Assembly (NCBI GenBank): GCA_963725665.1
Contig: CAVRZA010000002.1
Span: 1-64,000 of the forward strand
DNA: 64,000 bases
Direction of reading: 5' to 3'
Source: an uncultured Actinomycetes bacterium
GTDB taxonomy: Bacteria; Actinomycetota; Thermoleophilia; UBA2241
Shown here: in pieces, positions 25,768 to 57,142 of the stretch
Layout: every line of letters begins with the position of its first letter
How positions within the stretch are numbered: the first letter of the stretch is position 1
Program-made: the position numbers and the translations under genes
The notes under the pieces: model-generated
The model's input: only the letters and a program-made list of their open reading frames with translations
What the model was told of the DNA's origin: nothing
Database searches by the model: none

Positions 25768-25888
25768 AGCCGGACTCGATCCGGCGCCACACGCCCCCCG
25801 TCTTGTAAGCTCCCCCGCTGCGGAGTACATTGTCAGGTCGTACGTCGCGCCGCGACCGTTTGCCCCGCTCCTGAAAGGACTCGCTCGC

Positions 25889-29232: not shown

Positions 29233-29354
29233 TCGCGCTCCTCCACGTTCCCTCCTTCGCGAGGTCCCTACCGCGGTCGGCTCGGCGGTCGCACGCCTGG
29301 CAACGGAGTATTATGTACCGTCAGTCACATGCTCGGCTCGATTCGGGAGGACAC

Positions 29355-31988: not shown

Positions 31989-32010
31989 ACGAGGCGTCAG
32001 TTCAGCTGTC

Positions 32011-34651: not shown

Positions 34652-34847
34652 CCAAGTCTCCTGCCCCGATCTCGGCTAACGCGCGCCGGGAAGTCCTTCT
34701 CCTGTCGTCGTGGCACGCTGTAACGTGCCGGTCGGGGCCTCAACGAGACATGCGGATCCACCCGCGGACGCCGAAAGGACGTAGAGTCAGCACCTGGTTT
34801 TCGCCTGGGACAAGCACCTAGTTTCGTGTTTGACTCGACCTTAGGCA

Positions 34848-34865
34848 TTGTGGCACCCTTCACAA
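34848..34865. promoter_or_regulatory. Putative Rex operator upstream of cytochrome cassette 1
   Basis: TTGTGGCACCCTTCACAA matches TTGTGAA-N4-TTCACAA at 12/14 positions. Confidence 0.65.
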
Positions 34866-34993
34866 AGCGCGTTCGTTCGACAAGCCGTATTCGCGAGCCG
34901 CCTTCTTAGCGCGAGTGAGAACGAGCGTGCGCCGAGCCGTGGGAGACATGAGGGAATGAGTCCGCAGACCGGCCGTGGCCGGAGAGCAGCGAG

Positions 34994-35926
34994 ATGAGCG
35001 CGCGCCTGCGCCGCTGGCTGCCCGTCTTCGCCGTCGTGGGCGCCGCCTTCCTGCTGGCCGCCGCCGTCTACGTCCCCGTACGGCTGACCTCCACGACCTC
35101 CTACTGTACCTCCTGCCACGAGATGAAGCTGGCCGGCGACAGCCTGAAGCGCTCCCCGCATCGCAACGTCGACTGCCTCTCGTGCCACGTCGACCCGGGA
35201 GTGGGCAACGCCATCACCTGGCGCCTGCAAGAGTCGAAGAACATCTGGGCGTCCTACCTCAACATGCCGGTCAACGAGGGCATGAGCAAGGAGGTGCACG
35301 TCCCCAGCAAGGCAGCCTGCACGCGCAGCGGCTGCCACGACCTGAGCTCGCTGGGCACGACCTTCGGCAACGTGAAGATGAACCACGCCCGGCACGTCGA
35401 GATGCGCGGGCTGACCTGCATCGATTGCCACAGTAGGGTCTCGCACGCCAAACAGGGAGAATCGACCGCCGTCTCCATGGCCTCCTGCTTCATGTGCCAC
35501 AACGGCGCCGCGGCCCCCAACCAGTGCAGCCTCTGCCACGTGACCGTGCCCGCTCAGGCCTCGCATCCACCCAACTACGTCCAGGACCACGGCCGCTTCG
35601 CGCTTCTCAACGAGGCTGAGTGCCTGCGCTGCCACCACGACAAGAAGGCCTTCTGCGACGCCTGCCACGCCAAGCCCACGCCGGCTCACTACTCCGGCAC
35701 CTGGCGCTACACCCACGGACCCACGGCGAGCGCCGACCGCGTCAGCTGTCTCGGCTGTCATGACTACCAGAGCTTCTGCGTCCAGTGCCACCAGGTCGAC
35801 CACCCGAGCGACTGGTCCTCGAGCCACGCAGCGGTGGCCACCAAGGGCGACGAGTCCTGCCTCGTCTGCCACCCGCGCAGCATGTGCAGCGATTGCCACC
35901 AGCAGCGGGGAGTCACCGCCCCGTGA
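34994..35926 (+). CDS. Membrane-anchored NapC/NirT-like multiheme cytochrome c (11 CXXCH + 1 CX4CH), copy 1
   Basis: N-terminal TM helix; first motif CTSCHEM (CXXCHXM); motifs counted by hand. Confidence 0.9.
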   Translation: MSARLRRWLPVFAVVGAAFLLAAAVYVPVRLTSTTSYCTSCHEMKLAGDSLKRSPHRNVDCLSCHVDPGVGNAITWRLQESKNIWASYLNMPVNEGMSKEVHVPSKAACTRSGCHDLSSLGTTFGNVKMNHARHVEMRGLTCIDCHSRVSHAKQGESTAVSMASCFMCHNGAAAPNQCSLCHVTVPAQASHPPNYVQDHGRFALLNEAECLRCHHDKKAFCDACHAKPTPAHYSGTWRYTHGPTASADRVSCLGCHDYQSFCVQCHQVDHPSDWSSSHAAVATKGDESCLVCHPRSMCSDCHQQRGVTAP

Positions 35927-36795
35927 GCCACCGCCGCCTGCTGGCCTTCGCCCTGGCCGCCGCTCTGGCGGCGCTCGCCGCCTGGGCGATGCTCCCCCGA
36001 GAGGCGTTCGCGCAGACGGCTCAGAATCAGAACCAGCGCTGCTTCGCCTGTCACGCGCAGAAGGGTCTGAGCACGGTAGAAGTGAACGGGGCGCTGCGCA
36101 GCGTGGAGGTGAACACCGACTACTGGGCGAGGTCGGTGCACTCGCGTCTCGACTGCACCGCCTGCCACGTCGGCTTCATTCCCGGCAAGCACACCGCCGC
36201 TCAGACCGAAGGCTGGTGGCAGCAGGCGGCGCTCAAGTCGTGCGCCAACTGCCACGCCAACGAGTTCGCCATGTACAAGGGCTCCTTCCACGGCAACTTG
36301 GTCATGAACGAGCAGTCCACGAACGCCCCGACCTGTGGTGACTGCCACGGATCCCACGCCATAGTGGCTACCAATGGCGCGGAGTTCCGAGGCTCTGTAC
36401 CCAGCATCTGCGGTCGCTGCCATCGTGAGCGCTCCTTCACGTACTCCGACACCTATCACGGGCAGGCTACCGAGCTCGGTGGTACTGCGGCCGCAGTGTG
36501 CACGGACTGCCACGGGAACCACAAGATCCTCCCGGCCTCGAACCCTCAGAGCCTCGTCTCTGACAAGCACATCGTGGCTACGTGCCGCAAGTGTCACCCA
36601 AAGGCCAACGCGCTTTTCGCCACCTACCTCGTACACGTCGATCGCGGCGACCCGAGGTCGTCGTTCATCATCTGGCTCTCCGACCTCGCCCACGCCGTTC
36701 TCATCGGCGTCCTCTTCGTGTTCGCCGGTTCGCACTCCCTGCTGTACTTCTATCGAGGACGACGGGAGGGGATCTATGGCCGCCGCACCCACTGA
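35923..36795 (+). CDS. Heptaheme cytochrome c with signal peptide and C-terminal TM helix (CbcA/CbcL-like), copy 1
   Basis: AFA|Q signal peptide, 7 CXXCH, C-terminal hydrophobic helix; GTGA overlap with the upstream gene. Confidence 0.88.
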   Translation: MSHRRLLAFALAAALAALAAWAMLPREAFAQTAQNQNQRCFACHAQKGLSTVEVNGALRSVEVNTDYWARSVHSRLDCTACHVGFIPGKHTAAQTEGWWQQAALKSCANCHANEFAMYKGSFHGNLVMNEQSTNAPTCGDCHGSHAIVATNGAEFRGSVPSICGRCHRERSFTYSDTYHGQATELGGTAAAVCTDCHGNHKILPASNPQSLVSDKHIVATCRKCHPKANALFATYLVHVDRGDPRSSFIIWLSDLAHAVLIGVLFVFAGSHSLLYFYRGRREGIYGRRTH

Positions 36796-37693
36796 CGTTC
36801 GGCCGACAAGGCAGCAGACGCACCCGTCGCGCACGGAGCAAGCGGTGGACGTCGGCAGCCTCGAGTACCGCCGCTTCGGGCCATTTCATCGCTGGGTGCA
36901 CTTCTTCGTGATGGCCAGCTTCACGGTCCTGGTCTTCACGGGCATGCCGCTCAAGTACAAGGATGCAGGGTGGGCCAGGACCGAGATGGACTTCATCGGC
37001 GGCGTGCAGGCGGCCGGGGTGTTCCACCGCTTTGCGGCGATGATCATGGTCTCGTGCGTTGTGTGCGAGCTGTTCTACTTCGCTCGCTATATCCTGGGCC
37101 GAAAGGGCCCTCTATGGGGTCCGGGTACGATGGTTCCCACGCGCAACGACTGGGCGGACATGAAGGCGATGTACCGCTGGTTCTTCGGCCTGGGACCCAA
37201 GCCTGAGGGATTCGACCGCTACACCTACTGGGAGAAGTTCGAGTTCTGGGCTGCCTCGGGCGGCGTGATGACGATGGTCGCCACCGGCTTCATGTTGTGG
37301 TTTCCTGTGCAGACCGCGCGGTTCCTGCCCGGCGTCTTCCTCAACTTGGCCATGGTGAACCATGCGGGCGGCGCCTTACTCGCCATGGGGTTCGTGTTCG
37401 TCTTCTGGCACGTCTTTCACGCCCACTTCAGGCCCGAGGTGTTCCCCTTCGACAAGGTGATGTTCGATGGCACGATGCCGGCTCCGGAGTATGCCGAAGA
37501 GCGGTCCGTGGAGTACCAGCGCCGCGTGCGCTCGGGCACGCTCAGCGAAGTGCTCGTCGAACCTGCTGGGCATACGCGCAAGGCGTTCGAGAACGTCGTT
37601 TGGTGGGCGATCACCCTCATTGCCATGGTCGTCTGGACCATCTTCGCTGTGTTCACGGCGTGGATCACGCTGCTTTGGATCGGCGTACTCTAG
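36776..37693 (+). CDS. Di-heme cytochrome b (FdnI/HydC/CbcB-like), copy 1
   Basis: RRF..FHRWVH..TGMPLKY, FHRFAA, FDRYTYWEKFEFW, NHA and FWH His ligands. Confidence 0.87.
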   Translation: MAAAPTDVRPTRQQTHPSRTEQAVDVGSLEYRRFGPFHRWVHFFVMASFTVLVFTGMPLKYKDAGWARTEMDFIGGVQAAGVFHRFAAMIMVSCVVCELFYFARYILGRKGPLWGPGTMVPTRNDWADMKAMYRWFFGLGPKPEGFDRYTYWEKFEFWAASGGVMTMVATGFMLWFPVQTARFLPGVFLNLAMVNHAGGALLAMGFVFVFWHVFHAHFRPEVFPFDKVMFDGTMPAPEYAEERSVEYQRRVRSGTLSEVLVEPAGHTRKAFENVVWWAITLIAMVVWTIFAVFTAWITLLWIGVL

Positions 37694-38242
37694 GAGCGCC
37701 GTGACCAAAGGCTTGCGCTCCGGCGTACGGCCCCGCCTTGCCCAGAGGGCCGGATCTCGATCCGAACCGCCCCGTGTAGCGCGAATGGGCACACGGCCCC
37801 GCCGTTGCGACCTGCGTCAGACGTGACTACCAGGTCTGTGGCACCCAGCGGTCTGCCAGAGTGTGACAAGCGCGCCGCTTCCTCACTGCGCTCGTACCGT
37901 CCGGCCTAGACCCCACTTATGTCCTGGGCGATGCTCTAGGAGGAGCGTCAGCCGCGGCTCTTCCGTGGGCTTGCGTCAGGTCTTGTCCCCCATCCCCATG
38001 GGGAATGCGAGAGAAACGACAGCCTGACCTCGACCCGTACTCCGCAGTGTCACCTCGCCGCTGTCATGATGCGACGATTTCCCTGCATATCGGGATGCAC
38101 GTGGACGGCGTACCCTAGAAGCTTCTGGGGTTACTACCCTAGACACTAGGGTGGTACTCCTGGGGTAAATTGGGGTGCTGACGCACGTCAGAATGGGACG
38201 AGCAACCGAGTCTCACCGCGCCCCCCCATCGGTACACTAGTT

Positions 38243-38260
38243 ATGTGACTTGAAGCACAA
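38243..38260. promoter_or_regulatory. Weak Rex-like operator upstream of the small ORF at 38285
   Basis: ATGTGACTTGAAGCACAA, 10/14 match to consensus. Confidence 0.4.
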
Positions 38261-38284
38261 GCTAGCGCCAGAGAGGAGGCGACG

Positions 38285-38467
38285 ATGGGCATAGTCGAGT
38301 TGCTTGCATGGGTGGTGTTCGGTGCGATCTGGGTGGGTCTCGTCACGGTGGCGATTCTCGTCATCCTGATGGCGTTCGGGGTCACTCGGTCGGTCATCGC
38401 TGCTCGGGCTGCCGCGGTCACCAAGTCCTTGGTCCCAGCGCGGCATCAGAGCCCGCAGACGCGGTAG
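38285..38467 (+). CDS. Small single-TM protein (60 aa)
   Basis: GAGGAGG ribosome-binding site; LAWVVFG hydrophobic helix. Confidence 0.65.
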   Translation: MGIVELLAWVVFGAIWVGLVTVAILVILMAFGVTRSVIAARAAAVTKSLVPARHQSPQTR

Positions 38468-38765
38468 TCGTCCTTGGCCTGCCCCCCCGGCCGCGGAAGC
38501 GTCTGGGATTCGCAGACCGGCCGAGTGAACATGTGTCTCGCCGGTCGGTGTCAGGGAAAGGGGCGGGGCGCCTTGGGACCGGCTCACGCCTTGGAGGGAG
38601 TCCTGCCGGCGCCCCGGGGACGGATGCTGTTGGCTGACTGAGCGTGTCCGCGCTCGGTCCTCAGCCGCCGCCCTTCTTCGAAGTCTCGCGAGTTCAAGCG
38701 CCACGCGTCGCTCGTCGCGGAGTCTCCGTCTTTCAGCTCGTTCTCTTCAGCCCATCCTGTGTGAG

Positions 38766-38897
38766 CTACTCGTCCGGCTCCTGCTGCTTGCGTCGCCCCG
38801 GAAGCACGATCTTCAAGAGGACCACTACCACGAAAGCGACGCCCGCTGCGAGTACCAAGCCGAACGGGATCCACGCCAGTGACTTGATGAGTTCCAC
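38766..38897 (-). CDS. Small single-TM protein (43 aa), below the ORF-track size cutoff
   Basis: GGAGG ribosome-binding site + GTG; MELIKSLAWIPFGLVLAAGVAFVVVVLLKIVLPGRRKQQEPDE. Confidence 0.6.
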   Translation of the reverse strand: MELIKSLAWIPFGLVLAAGVAFVVVVLLKIVLPGRRKQQEPDE

Positions 38898-38993
38898 CGT
38901 CGCCTCCCCAGGGGTCAGCACCAGCCTTGATCTGACCTCGCCTCCGGTCGACCGCTGCCCCTACATCAGGAGCGTGCTCTCGTGATCACCGGA

Positions 38994-39011
38994 TTGAGGC
39001 ACCCTTCACAG
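38994..39011. promoter_or_regulatory. Putative Rex-like operator
   Basis: TTGAGGCACCCTTCACAG, 16/18 identical to the site at 34848. Confidence 0.55.
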
Positions 39012-39251
39012 GGAGCACTAGCCTATCGGCAAACGACCCTCCGGTAAAGACTGTACTCGTCTGGGGTGTTGTCCCATTCCCCGCTGACGTGACGATCTGT
39101 GGCTGGAGGTCCGTGCGTGCGACTCCGAGCGTTCGTCTCACCGGTACGCCCGCCGCTTTCGAGTCTATTCAGGTTCGGGTCGGGATCGAAGCAAAGCTTC
39201 GGCTCTGCGCGTCATAACGGAGGCTGGGGTGGGTTTGACACCGGACCCAGC

Positions 39252-39269
39252 CTGAGGCATTGTTCACAA
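39252..39269. promoter_or_regulatory. Putative Rex-like operator overlapping the promoter of cassette 2
   Basis: CTGAGGCATTGTTCACAA with a perfect right half-site; TTGACA (39235-39240) lies 17 bp before CATTGT. Confidence 0.5.
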
Positions 39270-39397
39270 GCGTTTTCGATTTCGTGTGTCGGCGCCGTCG
39301 TTACACCATTCTTCCTGTATCTTCGCCGGCGGCGCGCGAGGAGCCATCGGGGGATTGACGGATGAGTGGGCGGTACCCTACCCGGCGCGATGGGAAG

Positions 39398-40331
39398 ATG
39401 AGCGCGCGCCTGCGCCGCTGGCTGCCCGTCTTCGCCGTCGTGGGCGCCGCCTTTCTGCTGGCCGCCGCCGTCTACGTCCCCGTACGGCTGACCTCCACGA
39501 CCTCCTACTGCACCTCCTGCCACGAGATGAAGCTGGCCGGCGACAGCCTGAAGCGCTCCCCGCATCGCAACGTCGACTGCCTCTCGTGCCACGTCGACCC
39601 GGGAGTGGGCAACGCCATCACCTGGCGCCTGCAGGAGTCGAAGAACATCTGGGCGTCCTACCTCAACATGCCGGTCAACGAGGGCATGAGCAAGGAGGTG
39701 CACGTCCCCAGCAAGGCGGCCTGCACGCGCAGCGGCTGCCACGACCTGAGCTCGCTGGGCACGACCTTCGGCAACGTGAAGATGAACCACGCCCGGCACG
39801 TGCAGATAGCCGGGCTGACCTGCATCGACTGTCACAAGACCACCGCCCATTCCGCCAAGGGCCAGTCCGCCGTCGGTCTCCATGGCCTCCTGCTTCATGT
39901 GCCACAACGGCGCCGCGGCCCCCAACCAGTGCAGCCTCTGCCACGTGACCGTGCCCGCTCAGGCCTCGCATCCACCCAACTACGTCCAGGACCACGGCCG
40001 CTTCGCGCTTCTCAACGAGGCTGAGTGCCTGCGCTGCCACCACGACAAGAAGGCCTTCTGCGACGCCTGCCACGCCAAGCCCACGCCGGCTCACTACTCC
40101 GGCACCTGGCGCTACACCCACGGACCCACGGCGAGCGCCGACCGCGTCAGCTGTCTCGGCTGTCATGACTACCAGAGCTTCTGCGTCCAGTGCCACCAGG
40201 TCGACCACCCGAGCGACTGGTCCTCGAGCCACGGTCAAGCCGCGACCGCAGCCCCGAAGTCCTGCCTCGTCTGCCACCCGCGCAGCATGTGCAGCGATTG
40301 CCACCAGCAGCGGGGAGTCACCGCCCCGTGA
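39398..40331 (+). CDS. NapC/NirT-like 12-heme cytochrome c, copy 2, frameshifted near 39860-39875
   Basis: Near-identical to 34994-35926; split over ORFs 39362-40024 and 39882-40331; alternative in-frame start at 39362. Confidence 0.87.
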
Positions 40332-41194
40332 GCCACCGCCGCCTGCTGGCCTTCGCCCTGGCCGCCGCTCTGGCGGCGCTCGCCGCCTGGGCGATGCTCC
40401 CCCGAGAGGCGTTTGCGCAGACGAACCAGGACAACGAACGCTGCCTTCGCTGTCACGCCGACATGTCGGGCACAGTCTCCGCCAACGGCACGCACGCGAG
40501 CCTCGCGGTGTCGCCCGAGACGTACGGCTCCTCGGTGCACTCGCTCCTCGACTGCACCAGTTGCCATCCCAACTTCACCGCGGGTGAGCATTCGGCGGCG
40601 CAGACCGCGGACTGGTGGCGCAAGGCGACTCTTGAATCCTGCGCCAACTGCCACTCCGGCCAGGCCGCGATGTACAAGGGCTCCTTCCACGGCAACCTGG
40701 TCATGAACCAGGGTGCGACCAACGTCCCTACCTGCGGAGGTTGCCACGGCTCACACGGCATCATGAGCACGACGACGAGGAAGTTCCGCGTCTCCATCCT
40801 AGACATGTGCGGTCGCTGTCACGGCGGGCGTGCTGCAAGCTATCTCGATGTGTATCACGGCAAGGCGTTCAAGCTAGGCGACGACTCAGCGGCTGTGTGC
40901 ACGGATTGCCACGGCGCGCATAGGATCCTGCCGGCCTCGAATCCCCAGAGCCTCGTCTCCAGTGAGCACATCGTAGCCACGTGCGCAAAGTGCCATCCCG
41001 GCGCGAATGCTCAGTTCGCCACCTACCTCGTGCACGTCGATCCAAGCTCACCGAAATCGTCCCTGACGGTGTGGCTGTTCTATGCCGCCTACTTCCTGCT
41101 GATCGCCGTCATCTTCACGTTCGGTGCAGTACACAGCGCGATGTACTTCTACAGGGGGCGAAAGGAGGGGATGTATAGCCGTGGCGCAGACTGA
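40328..41194 (+). CDS. Heptaheme cytochrome c (CbcA-like), copy 2
   Basis: Signal peptide identical to copy 1, 7 CXXCH, C-terminal TM helix. Confidence 0.88.
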   Translation: MSHRRLLAFALAAALAALAAWAMLPREAFAQTNQDNERCLRCHADMSGTVSANGTHASLAVSPETYGSSVHSLLDCTSCHPNFTAGEHSAAQTADWWRKATLESCANCHSGQAAMYKGSFHGNLVMNQGATNVPTCGGCHGSHGIMSTTTRKFRVSILDMCGRCHGGRAASYLDVYHGKAFKLGDDSAAVCTDCHGAHRILPASNPQSLVSSEHIVATCAKCHPGANAQFATYLVHVDPSSPKSSLTVWLFYAAYFLLIAVIFTFGAVHSAMYFYRGRKEGMYSRGAD

Positions 41195-42095
41195 GGTCGA
41201 AGTCGCTCGTGAAAGCGAGAAGCGACCCGTCGCTCTCACTAGAGAATCGACGGGCGTGCGTCTCGAGTACAAGCGGTTCAACGCCTTCCATCGCTGGATG
41301 CACTTCCTCACCATGACGAGCTTCACCGTACTCGTGTTCACCGGCATGCCGCTGAAGTACAAGGACGTCGGGTGGGCGCAGGCGACGATGAACCTCATCG
41401 GCGGTGTGGAGAGCGCAGCGATCCTGCATCGTCTCGCCGCTCTGGTGACATTCTTCGCATTCGGCTGCGAAGCCGTCTACATCGCGCTGTACATCGTCCT
41501 GCGCAGGGGCCCACTCTGGGGCAGCGCCACGATCATGTTCTGCCGCAAGGACCTGGCGGACGTGACGGCCATGTTCAAGTGGTTCTTCGGGCGCGGGCCG
41601 TACCCCAGGTTCGACCGGTTCACCTACTGGGAGAAGTTCGACTTCTGGTCGCTCGCCGGGGGCACCGTGATCATCGGCGGCACCGGCCTCATGATGTGGT
41701 TCCCCGTGCAGACGGCCAAACTGCTGCCCGGCGTCTTCCTCAACATCGCGCTGGTGATCCACTCGAACGAGGCACTCCTGGCCGTGGGGGTGATCTTCAT
41801 CTTCGTCCATCTGTTCAGCGCCCATCTCAAGCCGGGCTCGTTCCCTCTCGACAAGGTCATCTTCGACGGTTCGCTCCCCTATCGAGAGTACGTGCACGAG
41901 AGACCGCTGGAGTACGAACGGCGCATCAAGGAGGGTACCCTGGGGCAGGTGCTCGTTGAGTGCGACACGAGCACGACACGCGCGAAGGCGGCGATGGGTC
42001 TGTGGTACGTCATCACCATCATCGCGTTCGTGTGCGCCGCTGGTTTCGGCGTCTTCCTCGCGTGGGCGACGCTCACGTGGATAGGGCTGCTGTAA
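41181..42095 (+). CDS. Di-heme cytochrome b (CbcB-like), copy 2
   Basis: FHRWMH, LHRLAA, FDRFTYWEKFDFW, IHSNEALL, FVHL. Confidence 0.87.
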   Translation: MAQTEVEVARESEKRPVALTRESTGVRLEYKRFNAFHRWMHFLTMTSFTVLVFTGMPLKYKDVGWAQATMNLIGGVESAAILHRLAALVTFFAFGCEAVYIALYIVLRRGPLWGSATIMFCRKDLADVTAMFKWFFGRGPYPRFDRFTYWEKFDFWSLAGGTVIIGGTGLMMWFPVQTAKLLPGVFLNIALVIHSNEALLAVGVIFIFVHLFSAHLKPGSFPLDKVIFDGSLPYREYVHERPLEYERRIKEGTLGQVLVECDTSTTRAKAAMGLWYVITIIAFVCAAGFGVFLAWATLTWIGLL

Positions 42096-42169
42096 GCTAA
42101 TCGACACGGCGCGCGGCTGGGGACGTCGCCGAAGGGCGACGGCGATCCGCGCGCCGGCGGGAGGTTGAC

Positions 42170-43729
42170 ATGGGAGCCATGGGCGTGAGAGGCAAGAGGC
42201 CGGGACTACTGCGCTGGCTCGCTGTGGTCGCGCTCGCGTGCGCGGGCGCGGCGGCCGGGCTGGCGCTCGCCGCCGCGCCCGCGCACGCCTTCGACCTGTG
42301 GCAGCACGACGGCGCCAGCGACTGCGCGTTCTGCCACAGCGCCGGCACGCCCACGAACGCCGTCTGCACGCAGTGCCACCTCAGCTACAAGACGATAAGC
42401 AGCCTGACGTGCTGGGCATGCCATGCCCCGGGCCAGGATGTCAGTTTCTACCAGACGGCGGCTGGTTGTTCGTCCACATGTCATCTCTACGCCGGCGGCG
42501 GACCTGCCGACTACACGGTCCCCGTGTCACACGGAACGACGCCCCATCTGGGGGCTGACTTCGCGCCGTGCACTGCCTGCCACTCGGTCAGTGCCAGCGC
42601 TACCGACCCCGACGGCAGCCCTCATCACGACGGCGTCCCGCAAGGTGTGCCGACGTGCGAGGACTGTCACGACGGCACCTTCGCCTCGGCCAAGCAGCCT
42701 CACGACGGTCTCTCGTGCCAGACGTGTCACGACAACTCGATGTCGCGTCCGGCGCTGAGCAACGCCTACTGCCTGGCTTGCCACGAGAACGCGAGCGACC
42801 AGACGGGGGCGACCCAGATCGTCTTCACTGGCAGCCTGAACTGCTACGACGCGAGCTGCCACGGCGTCGACGTCCTCCATACCACGTCGCCGCAGATGAC
42901 CAAGACCTGCACCGACTGCCACGCGCCCCACTACCAGGGGCTCGGCACGTGCACGACCTGCCACAGCGATGTCGAGGGCTATCACCACGGGCAGGCTCAT
43001 CCGATCCCGCTCGACGACTGCACGGCGTGCCACAACGGCACCCTCGCCCCCAAGAAAGCGAACCACGACGGGGTGACGCCCACGTGCACAGCCTGCCACA
43101 CCGGCATGGACATCCCGCCGCAGCCCGCGACGTGCACGAAGTGCCATTCGTCGGCCACGTTCGGCGGCAAGACCTGCACGAGCTGTCACAGTCCCGGCGG
43201 CATCTTCAAGCAGGAGCAGGTGCACAACACGGCCCCCAACACGGATCCGTGCACCCGCTGCCACGCCGGGTATCAGAAGCACGCCGGCGCCGTGGCCTGC
43301 AGGACGTGCCACGCGAACGCGACCAAGTTCCACCACAAGGTCGTCTCGAGCCCCGGCTTCAAGAAGTGCACGTCTTGTCACTCCAAGAAGCACGCCGGCC
43401 GAAGCATAGCGGCCTCGAAGTGCTCTGTATGCCACAAGGGCAACCGCCCGACCTCCAAGCCGCGGGCGCAACACTCGGTGACGGTCAGCAAGAAGCGCAC
43501 GTGTTCCGCCTGCCACCGCCAGCGAGCGCACGCGTCGGCCGTGTCGAGTGTCACGTGCACTAACTGCCACGGCAGCGTCTTCCACCGCCGCATGCCCATC
43601 CCCACGAGCTCGGTCTGCTACAGGTGCCACGCGAGTGCGAGATCCCACGCTGTGGGCTTCCCGTGCACGGTCTGTCACCCCAACCTCGAGCACAATCCTC
43701 GCCCGAGCGCCGGGTTCGCGAGGCTCTGA
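42170..43729 (+). CDS. Secreted multiheme cytochrome c (21 CXXCH + CX3CH + CX4CH)
   Basis: Sec signal peptide ending AHA|F; 23 heme motifs in ~480 aa of mature chain; no TM anchor; GGAGG ribosome-binding site. Confidence 0.9.
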   Translation: MGAMGVRGKRPGLLRWLAVVALACAGAAAGLALAAAPAHAFDLWQHDGASDCAFCHSAGTPTNAVCTQCHLSYKTISSLTCWACHAPGQDVSFYQTAAGCSSTCHLYAGGGPADYTVPVSHGTTPHLGADFAPCTACHSVSASATDPDGSPHHDGVPQGVPTCEDCHDGTFASAKQPHDGLSCQTCHDNSMSRPALSNAYCLACHENASDQTGATQIVFTGSLNCYDASCHGVDVLHTTSPQMTKTCTDCHAPHYQGLGTCTTCHSDVEGYHHGQAHPIPLDDCTACHNGTLAPKKANHDGVTPTCTACHTGMDIPPQPATCTKCHSSATFGGKTCTSCHSPGGIFKQEQVHNTAPNTDPCTRCHAGYQKHAGAVACRTCHANATKFHHKVVSSPGFKKCTSCHSKKHAGRSIAASKCSVCHKGNRPTSKPRAQHSVTVSKKRTCSACHRQRAHASAVSSVTCTNCHGSVFHRRMPIPTSSVCYRCHASARSHAVGFPCTVCHPNLEHNPRPSAGFARL

Positions 43730-43731
43730 GC

Positions 43732-44766
43732 TTGCGCATCAGGGTCACCACACGCAAGGTGGTCGTCGCCGCCGTCGTTGTGACGGCGTTCCTCGTTCTC
43801 ACAGGCTTCGCGCTGATCTCGACATCGACCACGGCCTTCTGCGGCCTCTGTCACAACATGAAGCCTTCCGTGGACGCGTTGGAGCGCTCGGCGCACGGCG
43901 GCGTGAACTGCGAGCAGTGCCACAGCAAGCCGGGGCCGTTCTTCTTCCTCACCGCTAAGCTGGAGGCGCTGCAAGAGCCTGTGAAGCAGATCAGCGGCAA
44001 CTATGAGGAGCCCATTCTCGGAGTCGTGCAGAACGCCTCCTGTCGCCGCTGCCACACCGATGAGCAGCTGTTTCCGACGATCTCCCGGAACGGCATCAAC
44101 GTCAATCACAAGCACCTGATCGAGGCCGGCTACCAGTGCGTGACCTGCCACTCCACCGTGGCGCACCTCGACGCCGTGCCGGAGGGCTCGCGCGCCTACC
44201 CGACCATGGACCAGTGTCTCGTGTGCCACAACAACCACTACACGGCCGCCGACGGCACGGTAGCCTACAGCCGCTGCGACCTCTGCCACGTCAAGCCTGC
44301 GGCGGGCACAAAGCCCGCCAACCACGTCGCCGACTGGCTGCGCGTTCACGGCAGCGCCGGCGTCCTCTCGACCTGCACCGCCTGCCACCCGCCCGTCGAG
44401 GGCGCTGCGCCTCCGCCAGGCGGCTGGACATCGCACCTCGACTGCACGGGTTGTCACCGTGGGGTCCTCATGCCGCATCCCGAGGTCTGGCTGCACCTGC
44501 ACGGCGCCGCGTCGCTCAAGAAGGGCGAGCAGAGCTGCGCCCTCTGTCACGATACGAAGACCTACTGCGTCGGCTGCCACCGTGTGCCCCTGCCGCATCC
44601 GGCCGACTGGGTGTCCGCTCATCCCCGGGTCGCGCGCGCGGACGCCGCCACATGCATGAACTGTCACAGGATTGAGAACTGCAACGCTTGCCACGAGGCT
44701 CACCAGAAGGGCTCGCCGCCAGCTCACCGCTTCCTGACCGGGCAGATCACGGGGAACGGGACGTGA
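43732..44766 (+). CDS. Membrane-anchored NapC/NirT-like 12-heme cytochrome c
   Basis: N-terminal TM helix, FCGLCHNM, 12 CXXCH; TTG start inferred. Confidence 0.88.
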   Translation: MRIRVTTRKVVVAAVVVTAFLVLTGFALISTSTTAFCGLCHNMKPSVDALERSAHGGVNCEQCHSKPGPFFFLTAKLEALQEPVKQISGNYEEPILGVVQNASCRRCHTDEQLFPTISRNGINVNHKHLIEAGYQCVTCHSTVAHLDAVPEGSRAYPTMDQCLVCHNNHYTAADGTVAYSRCDLCHVKPAAGTKPANHVADWLRVHGSAGVLSTCTACHPPVEGAAPPPGGWTSHLDCTGCHRGVLMPHPEVWLHLHGAASLKKGEQSCALCHDTKTYCVGCHRVPLPHPADWVSAHPRVARADAATCMNCHRIENCNACHEAHQKGSPPAHRFLTGQITGNGT

Positions 44767-44767
44767 C

Positions 44768-45952
44768 GTGAGCGACCGTGAGCCAATCGACCGTCCGCCG
44801 TACCGGCCGCAGCCGGACCCGACGCCGGAGCCGCCCGTGCCTTCGCGCCCCAAGCGGCGCTCGCGCCACCTGCTCGATCTCGTCCTCTCCAAGGGCTGGA
44901 TCGTCGGCGTACTCCTCGGCGTCGTGGTCGTGTTGATCGTCATCGCGATCGGCTTTGCGGTCGTCTACAACAACGCTTTCTGCGACCGCTGCCACGTGAT
45001 CAAGAAGGAGGTCGCCTCGTTCAACGCCTCGAGCCATCATCGTCCCGGAGTCGTTTGCCAGGACTGCCACACCAAGCCGGGGGTGTTCAACTACTTCATC
45101 CGTAACCTGCAGAGCGCAACGCACATCGTCGAGTACATCTCAGGGCGCTACCAGCGGCCTATCGTCACCTACGTGGCGGTCGAGAACTGCGTCACCTGCC
45201 ACCCCAAGGACCAGATAGAGCGCGACATCGTGGTGGGCAACATCCGCGTCAACCACACGGGTCTGCGGGAGGGAGGCTACCAGTGCATGACGTGTCACTC
45301 GCAGGTCGTCCACGGCGACGTCACGCCGGTCGGCTCGCGGGCTCCGGAGAGCACCATGCACATCTGTTGGCGCTGCCACAACGGCGTCGACCAGCCGCAG
45401 CGTTGCTCCATCTGCCACATCAACGGTGTCCCTCCGGGAACTGCTGAAGTCAAGATCCCGGTGCACATGTCGCAGGGCGACTGTACCGGCTGTCACGACC
45501 AGAAGTTCTGCGCCAAGTGCCACCACGGGCTCACGATGCCGCATCCATCGGGTTGGCTGAAGGCTCATGGCCCGGTGGTCGTCCAGCGTGGCGCGGCGAT
45601 CTGCGCCGACTGTCACACCAAGAAGGACCCCAAGTTCTGCATCCGCTGCCACGGCCTGCCCATGCCGCACCCGCCTCGCTGGCTCGCGACGCATCCGGCC
45701 GTGGCGACGAGCAAGCCGGCCCTGTGCGTCAAGTGTCACGGGCAGGACTCGTGCGTGAGGTGTCACGGCGTCGTGCTTCCGCACTCGGCGTCCTTTATCG
45801 GCAGTCACTGGGTAGAGGCTGCTCGGAGCGGCACCGTGTGCGTGAAGTGCCACGGCAACACGTCAGGCGGGACGACGGGCGCCGCGAGCTGTTACGGCGG
45901 CGACTGCCACGCACCTACACCTTCCGGCACGCTGCCCAACGGCAGACCCTAG
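44768..45952 (+). CDS. Membrane-anchored NapC/NirT-like cytochrome c (13 CXXCH + 1 CX4CH)
   Basis: Pro-rich N-terminal tail, TM helix, repeated PHP..W..H di-heme modules. Confidence 0.88.
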   Translation: MSDREPIDRPPYRPQPDPTPEPPVPSRPKRRSRHLLDLVLSKGWIVGVLLGVVVVLIVIAIGFAVVYNNAFCDRCHVIKKEVASFNASSHHRPGVVCQDCHTKPGVFNYFIRNLQSATHIVEYISGRYQRPIVTYVAVENCVTCHPKDQIERDIVVGNIRVNHTGLREGGYQCMTCHSQVVHGDVTPVGSRAPESTMHICWRCHNGVDQPQRCSICHINGVPPGTAEVKIPVHMSQGDCTGCHDQKFCAKCHHGLTMPHPSGWLKAHGPVVVQRGAAICADCHTKKDPKFCIRCHGLPMPHPPRWLATHPAVATSKPALCVKCHGQDSCVRCHGVVLPHSASFIGSHWVEAARSGTVCVKCHGNTSGGTTGAASCYGGDCHAPTPSGTLPNGRP

Positions 45953-46332
45953 CCGGTAGTGTCTCCGCCCGGCCCGGCCGGGCACGTGCTGTCTGGCCGA
46001 CGATCGCCGCTGCACGGCCTCCGCTGCCCTGATAGAGGCAGACCTCCTGCCTTGTTGAGACCCGGCTGCGACCCAGGTTGACGGAAGACACAATAGCCGC
46101 CGAACAGCGAGCGTTGAACCTGAGTCTGGAGGAGGCGGTGGGACGCGGACGTTACGTCTGCCGCTTCTTTTCTGCCCGAATGCGGTGAAGCCCTTCGTGG
46201 CGGGTGGCACGAAGCGCAAGCGCCCGCGCATATGGGTCGCGACGCCTTCTCTACACGCCTCGAGCCCGCTCTGCACCGCCCCCGTGAAAGCGAGCCGTCA
46301 ACAGGCAATCGAGCGAGCCTCCCTCTTCCCTG

Positions 46333-47589
46333 TCAAGGGGACTCAGTCGAAGGGAAGATCGGCAAGATCTTGGCGTAGAAGTAGAAGAGGACGAACGGGA
46401 ATATCAAGACACCGACAGCACCGACCAGGCCCTCCTTCAGGGTGTCCCAGCCGTGCGGCACTATCGGCAGTACGTAGTGCATGTACCCGGCAAAGGTGAG
46501 AGAGAAAGCCTGACCTCCGATAACGACGTTCCATCGCATCATGAACACGCCGAACAAGACGAGCACGACGCCGACGACGGCCCTTCTGATGGTCAACCGC
46601 GGAGCGAGAAACAGAATCAAGGGGACCAGATTACCAAGACCGTATTGCAGCAAGAATATGGAAGTGAACTCGTTGCCGTAGATGGTGCTCCGCAGGACAT
46701 CCCAGGACTTGACGGCCGTATACCCGCGGAACACGAGGTCGAGAAGCTCAAGACTGATGGCCAGAACCAAGAAGAGCAGGAGGTACCTGGAGGTGATCTT
46801 GATCACGCTAACCTCGACACCGCCGATCTCCTTGCGACGCTCGAGCGGATTCGTGGACGATCGCCTTCTGCGCACCAACAGTTTTCTGAGCTCCATGGTC
46901 ACGATATAGGTCAGCATGCAAAGGGCGATGCCCGACACAATCGCCGACATGATGAAGATGACCGGCATGAGTGGGGTCATCCAGAGAGCATTCGCCTTGA
47001 CCGACCCAAAGATGAAACCGGCGTAGCCGTGCAGGAACAGAGCGACGGGAATGCCTACGCCCGCGAGCAGTCGTATCGCGGTCTGATCTTGGCGCTGCGC
47101 CTTCTCGCTGAGGTCATATGAACCGAGGGTGAGTACGGTGAATATCGCGTACGAGAATCTCTCTCTCAGGGTCCTGTGGGTCTTGGCCCTGAGCGACATG
47201 GATCGCTCGACGAAGTGCCTGCGGTAGAGGAACCAGAGCTCAGAGGCCACGATCGCGAAATACGTCGAGAAGACGATGCCAAAAGCGGCGATCGCCGAAG
47301 TGAAATGGGGGGTCATCAGCACGTTGATGCCTCTGAGCGGATGTTGAAGATGCAGCAGAAGCGGCAAGAGCGCTCCAGGCAGCAGCGCAAAGGAGAACAC
47401 CAGGGCGAAGCGAGCTATGTCTTTGAGCTGCTTGATGCCGAACACATGGTAGAGAGATGACAGTACAAATGCTCCGGCGACAAGGCCGGTCATGAAGGGG
47501 TACATGACGATTTGGATGCTCCAGTAGATGTATTCGTTCGGGAGGACGAAAAGGTCCCTTAGCGTCCAGAGTTCGCCGTGTACTACCAT
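46333..47589 (-). CDS. nrfD: NrfD/PsrC-family quinone-interacting membrane subunit
   Basis: WSIQIVMYPFMTGLVAG, LHLQHPLR, LHGYAGFIF..W, RWNVVIGGQ. Confidence 0.85.
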   Translation of the reverse strand: MVVHGELWTLRDLFVLPNEYIYWSIQIVMYPFMTGLVAGAFVLSSLYHVFGIKQLKDIARFALVFSFALLPGALLPLLLHLQHPLRGINVLMTPHFTSAIAAFGIVFSTYFAIVASELWFLYRRHFVERSMSLRAKTHRTLRERFSYAIFTVLTLGSYDLSEKAQRQDQTAIRLLAGVGIPVALFLHGYAGFIFGSVKANALWMTPLMPVIFIMSAIVSGIALCMLTYIVTMELRKLLVRRRRSSTNPLERRKEIGGVEVSVIKITSRYLLLFLVLAISLELLDLVFRGYTAVKSWDVLRSTIYGNEFTSIFLLQYGLGNLVPLILFLAPRLTIRRAVVGVVLVLFGVFMMRWNVVIGGQAFSLTFAGYMHYVLPIVPHGWDTLKEGLVGAVGVLIFPFVLFYFYAKILPIFPSTESP

Positions 47590-47590
47590 A

Positions 47591-48439
47591 TCAGCGCACC
47601 TCCCAGTCCAGGCCAACATAGTAGACTTGAGGTTTGGTCCCAAATTCGCTCTTGAGGACCGCAACACGCTCGGTTAAGATGGTCTTTGTAACGGGATCGT
47701 ACGGGTCTTTGATATTGGCAATCTGCCGTGCGCCGAATGGGCAAGCCTGCACGCAGGCCGGAGGTAGCTCCTTGGTGATGCGGTGATAGCAGAAATTGCA
47801 TTTTTCCGCCGTGCGATAGATTGGGTTGAAGAACCTGGCTCCATAAGGGCATGCCATGATGCAGTATCCGCAGCCGATGCACCATGTCCTGTCAACGAGA
47901 ACGACACCGTCAGGGGCCTGGTAGGTGGCGCCGACCGGACAGACCTGCACACAGGGGGGATTGGCGCACTGGTTGCATAGCTTGGGGACGAAGAAGGCCT
48001 TTTCGATGTCTTCCTGCTTGATGTCCTGATACTCGCCTGCCTGGGTACCGGCCTTGCCGCCAATCTCGGCCGGTTCCCCCTGCTCGGCGCCCTGACCGAG
48101 GTAGATCCTGGGGTCGACGTAGCCGTCGCGGCCGCCCTTTGGAGAGTCGGCATGAAACCCGCCGTCCTTGGTCAGAACGTACCGCTCTACCCAGGTGCGC
48201 GTGACGTTGGCGTCGTAGGGGATCTCGTTCTCCAGTTTGCACGCCTTCACGCAAAAGCCGCACCCGACGCACTTGAAGGTATCGACCAGGAATACCCAGC
48301 GCACTGCCTTGTCTGTCTTTAGTGCTTGCATGCGTGCCGGGCTCAGGAGTTCGAAGGCCGCCGCCGGCACCATGAGTCCTCCTACGGCTAGGGCCGTCTT
48401 CTTCAGGAAGTCTCGTCTCGATACTCGTCTCGACATCAT
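47591..48439 (-). CDS. nrfC: Tat-exported NrfC/PsrB-like 4x[4Fe-4S] protein
   Basis: SRRDFLK twin-Arg signal; CVGCGFCVKAC, CNQC..PPCVQVCP, CIGCGYCIMACP, KCNFC..PACVQACP. Confidence 0.88.
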   Translation of the reverse strand: MMSRRVSRRDFLKKTALAVGGLMVPAAAFELLSPARMQALKTDKAVRWVFLVDTFKCVGCGFCVKACKLENEIPYDANVTRTWVERYVLTKDGGFHADSPKGGRDGYVDPRIYLGQGAEQGEPAEIGGKAGTQAGEYQDIKQEDIEKAFFVPKLCNQCANPPCVQVCPVGATYQAPDGVVLVDRTWCIGCGYCIMACPYGARFFNPIYRTAEKCNFCYHRITKELPPACVQACPFGARQIANIKDPYDPVTKTILTERVAVLKSEFGTKPQVYYVGLDWEVR

Positions 48440-48456
48440 CTCGGGACCTCGCGAGG

Positions 48457-49209
48457 TCAAGGCTGGAGCCGCAAGAACTGCAGGGCCGGTTTGTGTGGGT
48501 CGTGGCACCTGACGCACGCATAGCCGAGGTTATGACGCGGCTTGTCGTGGCATTTCAGGCAGAGCGCCCGGCTCTTGTCGATGGCAAGCTTCGGGGGGTG
48601 AGATGGATGGTTCTGTGCGGGGCCGTGGCAGTCTTCGCACTGGATGACCTCGTGCGGCATCCCGTTCGTACTGTCGACTTGCTCCTGGTGACAGGTCCTG
48701 CACCACACCTTTCCCTGGCGATGGCGGGACGCCGTTGACTGCAGATAACGCAGGTCCGGCTGGTGCGGGAGGTGGCATCTGACACACTCAAAGCCGGGGT
48801 TGTGAGTCCTTGGGTCGATGCCCCTGATGACCGCCCTTGCGCTTGACGGGTATAGCAGTTTGGCGTGGCATCTCAGGCACAGCGCCCGGCTCCTGTCGAT
48901 AACAAGCTTCGGCGGGTCGGTTGGATGATTCCTTGCGGGGCCGTGGCAGTTCTCGCACTGGATGATGGCGTGCGGCATCTCGCTGATCTTGGCGACCTGC
49001 TCCTGATGGCAGGGCTGGCAGTAGTCCTTTCCCTGATACTTGACCGTGACCTTTTTCCAGTCCTCGATGTTTCCTGCGCGGTACCAGCCGTACGTGTAGC
49101 CACGTGCATGCACGCCGAAATCACTTGGCACATAGAGTTGTCGGAATATGACAAGAATGGCGACGATCCCGATGATGACCAGTAGTGGTCTCAGGACGTG
49201 ACTCCTCAC
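48457..49209 (-). CDS. Membrane-anchored octaheme cytochrome c made of a duplicated tetraheme unit
   Basis: N-terminal TM helix, 8 CXXCH in two homologous halves; GGAGG + GTG start. Confidence 0.87.
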   Translation of the reverse strand: MRSHVLRPLLVIIGIVAILVIFRQLYVPSDFGVHARGYTYGWYRAGNIEDWKKVTVKYQGKDYCQPCHQEQVAKISEMPHAIIQCENCHGPARNHPTDPPKLVIDRSRALCLRCHAKLLYPSSARAVIRGIDPRTHNPGFECVRCHLPHQPDLRYLQSTASRHRQGKVWCRTCHQEQVDSTNGMPHEVIQCEDCHGPAQNHPSHPPKLAIDKSRALCLKCHDKPRHNLGYACVRCHDPHKPALQFLRLQP

Positions 49210-49756
49210 GGGCCGAACCTCCGGGCCCATCCCCGCCGCTCGGGTAGCCGTGGACCGCACGTAGAGCGTTGGGGCCGTGGAGAGCGCGCAGCGATCGAGC
49301 GTCCGCCGGAAGAGGTCCTCGCGCTGCTCGCGGCGATAGGGCCGGTGGCCGTACTCACCAGGTGTGCCTGCAAATGCGTAGGGCCGACCTCGTGGTCAAC
49401 TGGACCTCATCTAGTGCGGAGAGGATTTGACAGGACAGAGTAAAGGGTGTCGCAGTTGCGCACAACCACCTGATTCCCTCACGTCGATGGGCACCGGTCG
49501 CGCCGTCTCGCTTCCTGCCTGCCGCGAGTGACTTGGATGATGAGGGGCTCCGTCAAGACCTGTGCGGTTGAAGCTCGATACGGCGGCCCTGTCGGACAGT
49601 GCCTGCTTCCTGCCCCCGCGGTCAGTTGCGCCGCCTCCGTCGGCGCCCGTTCCTTGCCCTTCCCCGCACCCTGGAGAAGTCCGTGAAGCGCGCGAGATGC
49701 GTAAGCGTGAGGTGCCGGCTGTGGAGCAGACCGACCGGGTGGTAGAGTAGGCAGCC

Positions 49757-57124: not shown

Positions 57125-57142
57125 TTGTGAAGGCCAGAACAA
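57125..57142. promoter_or_regulatory. Putative Rex-like operator upstream of hdrA
   Basis: TTGTGAAGGCCAGAACAA, 11/14 match with a perfect left half-site. Confidence 0.45.

Follow-up and report, generated by a model that had tools for sequence, protein, structure and literature searches.

What does an uncultured actinobacterium do with 95 haem-binding motifs encoded in a single run of genes, in the midst of its menaquinone biosynthesis genes? The question is raised by a 64,000-nucleotide stretch of DNA, hereafter the window, which comprises positions 1 to 64,000 of contig CAVRZA010000002.1 (assembly GCA_963725665.1) from a member of the Thermoleophilia, within the Actinomycetota. Between positions 34,652 and 49,756 it carries eight genes for multihaem c-type cytochromes, two for cytochromes b and an NrfC/NrfD-like pair, which an earlier reading of the letters alone (the sequence-only reading) had proposed to be an electron conduit from quinone to the cell surface. 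We consider it probable, with modest confidence, that the region encodes a menaquinol-oxidising, electron-exporting cytochrome network of a probably anaerobic member of the Thermoleophilia. The parts of this network, their predicted topology, their paralogy, their conservation and the order of their genes are established by the analysis described below.

Genes were picked among the open reading frames (ORFs) by their G+C content at third codon positions (GC3), and haem motifs were counted on the ORFs. We refer to the forward-strand genes as A1 to A3, B1 to B3, C, D and E, and to the three reverse-strand genes that follow as F, G and H (Table 1). The count gave 12 haem motifs for A1, 7 for A2, 12 for B1, 7 for B2, 23 for C, 12 for D, 14 for E and 8 for H, for a total of 95 (90 CXXCH and 5 CX3-4CH), identical to the numbers first put forward. 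The longer motifs are found in A1 (11 CXXCH and 1 CX4CH), B1 (3+1 and 8 over two ORFs), C (21+1+1) and E (13+1). Pfam matches likewise bore out the two cytochrome b genes (Ni_hydr_CYTB in A3 and B3) and the NrfC/NrfD pair (4Fe-4S dicluster in G, NrfD in F). The original inventory was right in its counts and needs one correction here: the third cytochrome gene, B1, is split into two ORFs by a 1-bp insertion near 39875. Since none of the listed ORFs outside the cluster region (GC3 > 0.8, at least 90 aa) carries a CXXCH motif, the concentration of haem in this region is far beyond chance.

The sequence-only reading had seen neither a catalytic subunit nor a porin, and this observation stood. A scan of the window's ORFs with Pfam and NCBIfam models found no molybdopterin subunit, NiFe subunit or porin, and the window's cytochromes contain no CXXCK motif. 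Among the unmatched coding-like ORFs inside the related clusters described below there was no beta-barrel porin; only BNR propellers and small proteins without a known family were seen. Matches to the Pfam MtrC/MtrF domain lie at or below the cut-off of 30, except in B2 (35.8 bits) and D (30.1 bits). By predicted topology, C is the only soluble cytochrome and the other seven are membrane-anchored.

Table 1. Genes and other features of the cytochrome cluster and its flanks, with their positions in the window and the evidence for each (bit scores are given against the model cut-off)
Feature	Position	Strand	Evidence and remarks
A1, 12-haem cytochrome c, NapC/NirT-type N-terminus	34994..35926	+	PF03264 51.0 bits vs 24.1; one N-terminal transmembrane helix; 24 His
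A2, 7-haem cytochrome c, signal peptide, C-terminal transmembrane helix (CbcA-like)	35923..36795	+	GTG start overlaps A1 stop codon
A3, FdnI-fold cytochrome b, partner of A2	36776..37693	+	PF01292 Ni_hydr_CYTB 29.0 bits, just below cut-off 30.1
Spacer, 1.7 kb, between A3 and B1	37694..39397	.	no ORF with family match
B1, second copy of 12-haem NapC/NirT-like gene, frameshifted	39398..40331 (approx.)	+	N-terminal part PF03264 56.6 bits
B2, 7-haem cytochrome c, signal peptide, C-terminal transmembrane helix	40328..41194	+	start inferred by analogy with A2
B3, FdnI-fold cytochrome b	41181..42095	+	PF01292 35.0 bits vs 30.1
C, secreted soluble 23-haem cytochrome c, signal peptide, CbcC-like position	42170..43729	+	519 aa; no anchor motif
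D, membrane-anchored 12-haem NapC/NirT-like cytochrome c, start approximate	43714..44766	+	PF03264 61.1 bits; one N-terminal helix
E, membrane-anchored 14-haem NapC/NirT-like cytochrome c	44768..45952	+	PF03264 41.1 bits; one N-terminal helix
F, NrfD-family integral membrane subunit, 418 aa	46333..47589	-	PF03916 129 bits vs 25.8; GC3 0.76
G, NrfC/DsrO/TtrB-like, four Cys cluster motifs, twin-arginine signal RRxFLK	47591..48439	-	Fer4_11 82.8 bits; start inferred at MMSRR
H, 8-haem cytochrome c, N-terminal transmembrane anchor, internal duplication of 4-haem unit	48457..49260	-	motif count, topology
MqnP-like menaquinone prenyltransferase, directly 5' of cytochrome genes	33764..34651	+	UbiA-like TIGR01475, 263 bits vs 180.8
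Menaquinone biosynthesis decarboxylase (SCO4490/UbiD type), upstream flank	31912..33444	+	TIGR03701, 616 bits vs 495.9
UbiX-family flavin prenyltransferase, downstream flank	49757..50392	+	TIGR00421, 168 bits vs 108.9
MenG/UbiE-type methyltransferase, downstream flank, start approximate	50490..51227	+	TIGR01934, 225 bits vs 158
Rex redox-sensing repressor gene, context, possible cluster regulator	30674..31321	+	NCBIfam NF003992, 251 bits vs 226
Rex-operator-like inverted repeat (lead only)	34848..34865	.	about 130 bp 5' of A1; 13 bp downstream of TTGACT hexamer 34830-34835

Three kinds of quinone-interacting module are encoded, as had been proposed: NapC/NirT-type cytochromes, an FdnI-fold cytochrome b with a 7-haem cytochrome, and an NrfD/NrfC pair with an 8-haem cytochrome. 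The second kind is present twice, as A2-A3 and B2-B3. A2 and B2 have seven CXXCH motifs each, a number kept in 20 of 20 aligned orthologues, and the C-terminal helix of the 7-haem protein bears a histidine that is invariant in these 20 sequences and in 22 fused forms. By analogy with Geobacter CbcBA, this residue is a candidate ligand of a b-type haem. The cytochrome b itself has five invariant histidines and an extra C-terminal helix. In 24 of 68 adjacent pairs one continuous ORF encodes both the 7-haem protein and the cytochrome b, and a length-restricted search returned 19 further fused c-b proteins (336-932 aa; one named candidate division KSB1, none with a Geobacter name); the two genes thus form one unit. 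At the same place in eight related loci (L016, L020, L025, L026, L031, L032, L037 and L052), after the fused c-b gene and before mqnP, an ORF of 159-224 aa recurs; it matches no Pfam family, except that in two loci an extensin-like hit was obtained, weak and under the cut-off.

An AlphaFold2 model of a natural c-b fusion, taken from locus L035, reached a pLDDT of 71 and a pTM of 0.69. Its best structural match, found with Foldseek, was E. coli FdnI (1kqf_C; TM-score 0.72 on the target, probability 1.00, E = 4.4e-3), followed by the hydrogenase-1 cytochrome b (4gd3_A, 0.56). In formate dehydrogenase-N, the C-terminal helix of the partner subunit packs beside the b subunit. Unlike FdnI, the cytochromes b here are accompanied by no catalytic or FeS subunits of a formate dehydrogenase, their partner being the 7-haem cytochrome. 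When PDB sequences were searched with the cytochrome b profile, no chain matched at E ≤ 1. With the 7-haem profile, the best match was 28pb_A ('Cytochrome c', 278 aa, E = 2.6e-10, profile positions 37-197), and a weak match confined to haem-motif stretches was found to 6i5b_A (E = 1.7e-5), which is OcwA from the Gram-positive bacterium Thermincola potens.

Like the quinol dehydrogenases NapC, NirT, NrfH, CymA and ImcH, the proteins A1, B1, D and E have a single N-terminal helix and score above the PF03264 cut-off. They differ from these proteins in carrying 12-14 haems, and 16 in most E-type orthologues, against 4-7, in the frequent use of CXXCK as the first motif among their orthologues, and in having no partner reductase encoded nearby. 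No named equivalog of the NrfH, NapC, TorC or CymA type was assigned to any of the four, the best being NrfH (TIGR03153, 39-58 bits vs 134), and E matched the NrfH structure 2j7a_C weakly (E = 0.0019). A1, D and E are paralogues: identity is 33% between A1 and D (E = 9e-37) and 38% between D and E (E = 4e-59), and the three have a common haem spacing. With a profile of the 12-haem family, 279 representative clusters were retrieved at E ≤ 1e-30, a number that rises to 2428 at E ≤ 1e-10. Among the nearest 12-haem clusters in the Atlas the commonest phylum was Actinomycetota, and one row was mostly Archaea at 0.89, which we take as a lead only.

The first haem motif of these proteins is variable in a particular way. 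In the window's A1 and D it reads CXXCHxM. Among 62 A1-type orthologues it is CXXCHxM in 21, CXXCKxT in 20, CXXCKxM in 17 and another sequence in 1 (not found in 3); among 42 D-type orthologues it is CXXCKxH in 36, CXXCKxM in 2 and CXXCHxM in 3 (not found in 1); and the 37 E-type orthologues have CXXCHx[I/V/L] in 32 cases (not found in 5). CXXCK therefore stands as the first, membrane-proximal motif in 37 of 62 A1-type and 38 of 42 D-type orthologues, and nowhere else in the orthologues. In NrfH, the haem at the first-motif position is the haem of the quinol site. To our knowledge, it is unusual for a NapC/NirT-like protein to have a lysine-ligated haem at its presumed quinol site. By analogy with NrfH, the exchange of histidine and lysine at the first haem would be compatible with a special, quinol-facing haem.

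The 46 histidines of the soluble cytochrome C would suffice for a pair at each haem. The ORF at the C position has 12-17 haem motifs in 37 of 44 loci, and the copy in the window is the largest seen. The first 155 and last 160 residues are conserved among the orthologues, and the middle is variable. None of 20 C-type proteins checked (20/20) had an LPXTG-like motif or a lipobox. An AlphaFold2 model of C from a 20-row alignment was unusable (mean pLDDT 42), and C matched PDB sequences at the level of haem motifs only (3ov0_A, E = 5e-4).

The cluster sits within a block of respiratory cofactor genes, since it is flanked by the MqnP-like and UbiX genes and by mqn and haem genes. On the 3' side, the MenG/UbiE gene is followed by a polyprenyl synthase gene, mqnE, an mqnA-like gene and mqnC; further 5' lie hemB, a gene for an AhbD-like haem b synthase, hemL and rex. 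For the prenyltransferase directly upstream of the cytochromes, the best MqnP model was NF041586, at 294 bits below its cut-off of 430.

Is this arrangement particular to one genome? To address this, one genome per GTDB species was scanned with an alignment of the cytochrome b, which gave 53 related loci, and the content of these was determined by tblastn of the window's proteins. By record title, 49 loci are from metagenome-assembled genomes (MAGs) of Thermoleophilia, Actinomycetes or Actinomycetota, three from Opitutales and one from Acidobacteriota; none is from an isolate. The titles name peat, permafrost, lake sediment and soil as habitats. A word-indexed search with the B3 cytochrome b gave 899 relatives at E ≤ 0.001, and these were 52-90% identical among the 120 matches listed. 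A core, consisting of a 12-haem NapC/NirT-like cytochrome, the 7-haem cytochrome, the cytochrome b and a D-type 12-haem cytochrome, is present in 41 of the 53 loci, and in 39 it has menaquinone (futalosine pathway) genes on both sides. Of the 12 loci that lack the core, six are short contigs and six are divergent. Both C and E were also scored in 30 of the 53, and 19 have at least two cytochrome b modules. The flanks of the window recur by tblastn in the related loci: the SCO4490/UbiD-type decarboxylase is a conserved upstream flank, the MqnP-like prenyltransferase keeps its position and UbiX is kept downstream. Two loci (L004 and L035) have the layout of the window, in the order MqnP, module, gap, module, C, D, E, UbiX.

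In a quick tree of the cytochromes b, supported by SH-aLRT only, A3 falls into an 18-row clade (SH-aLRT 100) with 17 second-module cytochromes b of other loci, and B3 lies on a long branch nearest to those of L001 and L005. Since the core is shared with the same flanks in 39 of 53 loci and the A3 clade extends across loci, the core is an old, vertically kept trait of the lineage with old paralogous modules, and not a private island. The idea of a one-off island, which the sequence-only reading had suggested, is thus contradicted for the core by the synteny comparison across GTDB.

The H-G-F module stands apart from the core. These three genes lie on the minus strand and converge on E, and their GC3 is 0.71-0.76, compared with 0.85-0.92 for A1, C, D and E. 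Relatives of F that are 73-92% identical come from MAGs named Nitrospirota/Thermodesulfovibrionales as well as Thermoleophilia. Only this module looks acquired, and an NrfCD module may often be found elsewhere in the same genomes (L015, L034, L035). F and G could be assigned to no single characterised complex, as G scored below the cut-offs of DsrO (187.5 bits vs 200) and TtrB (204.7 vs 416), and F below those of the NrfD equivalog (40 vs 347.6) and QrcD (29.5 vs 570). In one Opitutales MAG (L043, 7178-13674), and likewise in L047, we observed a co-directional row encoding a NapC-like 7-haem cytochrome, an 11-haem-cytochrome b fusion, a 4-haem cytochrome, an NrfC-like and an NrfD-like protein; no porin was seen within 10 kb of the L043 row, which belongs to a diderm phylum. 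Because this Opitutales row holds all three module types, they travel together elsewhere too.

The A and B modules have a mixed relationship. About 1 kb of DNA (34994-35930 and 39398-40335), covering A1/B1 and the first codons of A2/B2, is 98-100% identical in the two, apart from one diverged patch. Over the remainder, DNA identity is 58-80%, and A3 and B3 are 53% identical as proteins, so that a recent duplication of the whole A module was rejected. This pattern fits old paralogues with recent gene conversion, or alternatively a collapsed or chimeric assembly. The extra base near 39875 that divides B1 into two ORFs lies at the edge of the short diverged patch, and B1 may be either a pseudogene or the product of an assembly indel. 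The latter is a live alternative because two other genes in the window are also split, each into two overlapping ORFs: an RND permease gene (14615-17801), whose parts match profile positions 12-244 and 249-1009, and a gene for a type III sulfide:quinone-reductase-like protein (4382-5334). The spacer between the two modules (37694-39397) matched no Rfam family, and at the DNA level nothing like it was found in the 53 loci. At the corresponding position, L004 (4902-7982) and L035 (5767-7728) carry a large gene for a BNR/Ycf48-like propeller with an N-terminal helix, which the window does not have.

How does this gene set compare with known systems? The sequence-only reading knew of no described system with this arrangement, a claim that does not hold for the modules, which match by description the published designs of Geobacter (Cbc5 and Cbc4) and of the Methanoperedenaceae. 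According to the available text of Joshi et al. (10.1101/2021.04.15.440034), CbcBA consists of a dihaem CbcB with four helices and three conserved histidines and a 7-haem CbcA, whose C-terminal anchor helix appears to supply a fourth histidine. The same text describes CbcBA as required for extracellular acceptors below about -0.21 V, with homologues in Verrucomicrobia and fusions in Chloroflexi. Cbc5, as far as it is described in the accessible parts of three papers (PMC13591261, PMC10470525, PMC11434368), comprises CbcA with 7 haems, a b-type CbcB, a periplasmic CbcC with 11-12 haems, a CbcD with a single haem and CbcE, which is a membrane protein. On these descriptions, the window resembles Cbc5 in having a 7-haem cytochrome with a histidine-bearing C-terminal helix, a PF01292 cytochrome b and, in the related loci, a soluble cytochrome of about 12 haems, all in the same order, and in that related forms occur as c-b fusions and in Verrucomicrobia. 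It differs in that a 12-haem NapC/NirT-like gene precedes the trio, D and E types of 12 and 14-16 haems take the place of CbcD and CbcE, and C has 23 haems. Its host belongs to the actinobacteria, genes of the porin-cytochrome kind were not seen, and, in place of a sigma-54-dependent regulator of the BccR type, of which there was none beside the operon among the scanned window ORFs, there are a Rex gene and a Rex-like site.

According to the accessible text of a preprint on CbcS (10.1101/2025.04.14.648717), Cbc4, a complex whose role is given as unknown, is made up of CbcS, a membrane-anchored cytochrome with four haems, CbcT, which has four [4Fe-4S] clusters, and CbcU, the integral membrane subunit. 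H-G-F is similar in outline, with an anchored multihaem cytochrome, a twin-arginine (Tat)-exported protein with four Cys clusters and an integral membrane subunit. Unlike CbcS, which is described as a NapC/NirT-type tetrahaem protein, H has 8 haems in a duplicated 4-haem unit and no PF03264 match. In the Methanoperedenaceae, the available text of Leu et al. (PMC7327174) reports five kinds of menaquinone:cytochrome c oxidoreductase clusters of bc and NrfD types, several of them in most genomes, which are proposed to carry electrons off the membrane. The window shares with these, by description, the lack of a porin, futalosine-type menaquinone and several parallel bc and NrfD/FeS/multihaem clusters; theirs are archaeal, have 6-haem cytochromes and are scattered, whereas those in the window are nested in a menaquinone operon. 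With the chain of Thermincola potens, our proposal has in common porin-free electron export by multihaem cytochromes in a monoderm, and it differs in the proteins, the phylum and the terminal surface reductase, which is not identified here. Two further candidates were rejected: alternative complex III, for which no molybdopterin-like ActB domain is present, and a nitrite reductase or octahaem enzyme, for which there is neither a CXXCK motif in the window's cytochromes nor a catalytic subunit. The system is best described as Geobacter-type inner-membrane modules recombined with long NapC/NirT derivatives and fixed inside an actinobacterial menaquinone operon.

In the literature, we found no description of the cluster or of its position in the menaquinone operon; supplements to preprints may list its genes. 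The available text of McDaniel et al. (PMC7438021) places lake and permafrost Thermoleophilia MAGs, including that of L033, in the uncultured order UBA2241. In the accessible part of a preprint by Olmsted et al., 'CbcL homologues' and other extracellular electron transfer proteins are reported in 8 of 19 Thermoleophilia MAGs, and the Thermoleophilia are called a gram-negative class; the sequence-only reading had taken the host for a probable monoderm. The preprint also names DFE_0448, for which no explanation was seen in the main text of Deng et al.

In the mechanism that we favour, all three kinds of module would oxidise menaquinol on the outward-facing side of the cytoplasmic membrane. These would be two bc-type units of CbcBA-like architecture, each an FdnI-fold cytochrome b with a 7-haem cytochrome c; three or four paralogous, anchored cytochromes of 12-14 haems derived from NapC/NirT (A1, B1, D, E); and the putatively acquired, Cbc4-like module, in which the 8-haem cytochrome is membrane-anchored, the protein with four Cys cluster motifs is Tat-exported and the third subunit is of the NrfD type. 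Electrons would run along the haems, whose bis-histidine ligation the histidine counts allow, to the secreted 23-haem C, and from C they would reach an acceptor beyond the membrane, for which Fe(III), humic matter or some other oxidant outside the cell is the most plausible. What we infer here is the direction in which electrons flow, together with the partners, the acceptor and any exposure at the surface. A bolder version, in which the Thermoleophilia clade respires extracellular Fe(III) or humics without a porin and across the actinobacterial wall, using a Cbc5-like core, 12-16-haem 'stilts' and a 12-23-haem C, is advanced tentatively, as possible rather than probable.

Several observations weigh against electron export of this kind. 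The likeness to Geobacter is one of architecture as the papers describe it and not of sequence comparison, and within it the five invariant histidines and extra C-terminal helix of the cytochrome b contrast with the four helices and three histidines given for CbcB; D and E have no counterpart in Cbc5 as described, where CbcD is a monohaem cytochrome and CbcE a membrane protein. For all 13 proteins, scores stayed below the cut-offs of specific NCBIfam equivalogs. In the 64-kb window there are no genes for cytochrome c maturation. B1 is frameshifted. The H-G-F module was not found within 10 kb on either side of any Thermoleophilia locus, so its link to the other genes may be an accident of insertion. 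As C has no wall or membrane anchor motif, it could diffuse away in a true monoderm unless docked. Finally, support for Rex control is thin, a comparable site with at most two mismatches occurring in only five related loci.

In a different view of the same genes, the cluster is a general menaquinol:cytochrome c hub for soluble or wall-space reductases encoded elsewhere, acting for example on nitrite, nitrous oxide, sulfur compounds or metalloids, and passes no electrons to a solid or humic acceptor outside the cell. NapC/NirT proteins classically serve soluble reductases. The nearest NCBIfam models to the window's proteins are NrfH, TorC and NapC, all below cut-off; a membrane anchor is predicted for seven of the eight cytochromes, while C bears no motif for attachment at the surface; the clade-wide position in a menaquinone operon suits a housekeeping role, and the window is 64 kb of a contig reported as 593 kb. 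We nevertheless consider a hub unlikely. There is no reductase gene in or beside the cluster in the window, nor among the unmatched ORFs within the bounds of the related clusters, and about 60-95 haems per cluster are far above the need of a simple quinol dehydrogenase. The variable haem number of C (12-23) would also resemble that of fast-evolving, outward-facing cytochromes.

Electron flow in the reverse direction, in which Fe(II), reduced humics, a partner cell or a cathode would feed the menaquinone pool, is a clearly improbable reading. In energetic terms, it is unfavourable for Fe(II) or humics to reduce menaquinone unless some additional force drives the reaction. The window showed neither Cyc2 nor another marker of the oxidation type, and the closest characterised analogue, CbcBA, acts in the reduction of extracellular acceptors as its published description goes. 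The potential of menaquinone is about -80 mV in the accessible text of PMC7327174. Uptake draws some support from the fact that multihaem chains are reversible in principle, as are the redox equilibria among CbcA, CbcC and PpcA according to the available text of a 2026 Geobacter review (PMC13591261). NrfD/NrfC modules can also be quinone reductases elsewhere, and QrcC/QrcD are among the nearest models to those in the window, at scores far below cut-off.

That the region is a recently acquired one-off island, and a system without precedent, is very improbable in view of the relatives. The G+C content, about 68% over the window, does fall to 0.58-0.67 across 36-48 kb against about 0.69 in the flanks, F, G and H have a low GC3 with NrfD relatives in Nitrospirota/Thermodesulfovibrionales MAGs, and an IS982-family transposase gene (301-1176; 154 bits vs a cut-off of 130) is present, at the edge of the window and distant from the cluster. 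Recent acquisition would fit only F, G and H and is contradicted for the core, whose flanks recur unchanged in kind in 39 of the 53 loci, these being from different species-level MAGs; the A3 clade is common to 17 sequences from other loci, and the modules match published designs. It is equally hard to credit that the haems serve mainly as a charge store (a redox buffer or capacitor) or as protection from oxidants, as 23 haems in 519 aa and the 'dynamic electron buffering' among such cytochromes stressed in the available text of the Geobacter review (PMC13591261) might suggest, for this leaves the three kinds of quinone-interacting module and the strict linkage to menaquinone synthesis unexplained, and storage and conduction are not exclusive.

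With respect to regulation, the inverted repeat upstream of A1 (34848-34865) has one mismatch to an assumed Rex operator consensus. At up to two mismatches to the same assumed consensus, five Rex-like sites occur in the window, compared with a mean of 0.68 in shuffled sequences. Two of the others, with two mismatches each, lie at 57125-57142, 5' of an HdrA-like gene, and at 38243-38260, in the spacer. In the related loci, a Rex-like site 130-175 bp 5' of the first 12-haem gene was found only in L001, L005, L006, L011 and L024, in a scan whose denominator of 139 'starts' is inflated by cross-matches between paralogues. A promoter and terminator scan of the window gave site counts not above those in shuffles; a terminator-like hairpin at 46145..46161 (+), a consensus match only, follows E in the convergent E/F gap. 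An Rfam search of the whole window gave no match.

Two neighbouring regions deserve mention. Between hemB and hemL, a radical-SAM gene (27028-28140) scored 498 bits against the AhbD haem b synthase model, whose cut-off is 500; the neighbouring coordinates are 25430-26860 and 29313-30638. This AhbD-like gene hints at a siroheme-dependent haem route. Such a route is atypical for Actinomycetota. Beyond the menaquinone genes, 57256-61596 encodes an HdrA2-like flavoprotein, which at 832 bits stays under the model's cut-off of 1100, and after it an FeS protein resembling FrhB and a further one resembling AsrA/HydB; this region may be an electron-bifurcating or heterodisulfide-reductase-like module adjoining the menaquinone genes.

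What the cluster means for the Thermoleophilia depends on where its electrons go. For biochemistry it offers handles in its fixed position in the menaquinone operon, the natural c-b fusions and the exchange of histidine and lysine at the first haem. If only soluble reductases are fed, it is an ordinary, though unusually haem-rich, set of quinol dehydrogenases. If electrons are exported, an abundant uncultured actinobacterial lineage would join iron and humic cycling in methane-relevant habitats. Were the cytochromes to reach acceptors at the cell surface, the cluster would be the first example in the Actinomycetota of a multihaem system for extracellular electron transfer and would show Geobacter-type inner-membrane modules working without an outer-membrane conduit, and a 7-haem/cytochrome b pair next to mqnP and ubiX would become a marker for widespread, overlooked reducers of metals and humics in soil and sediment.

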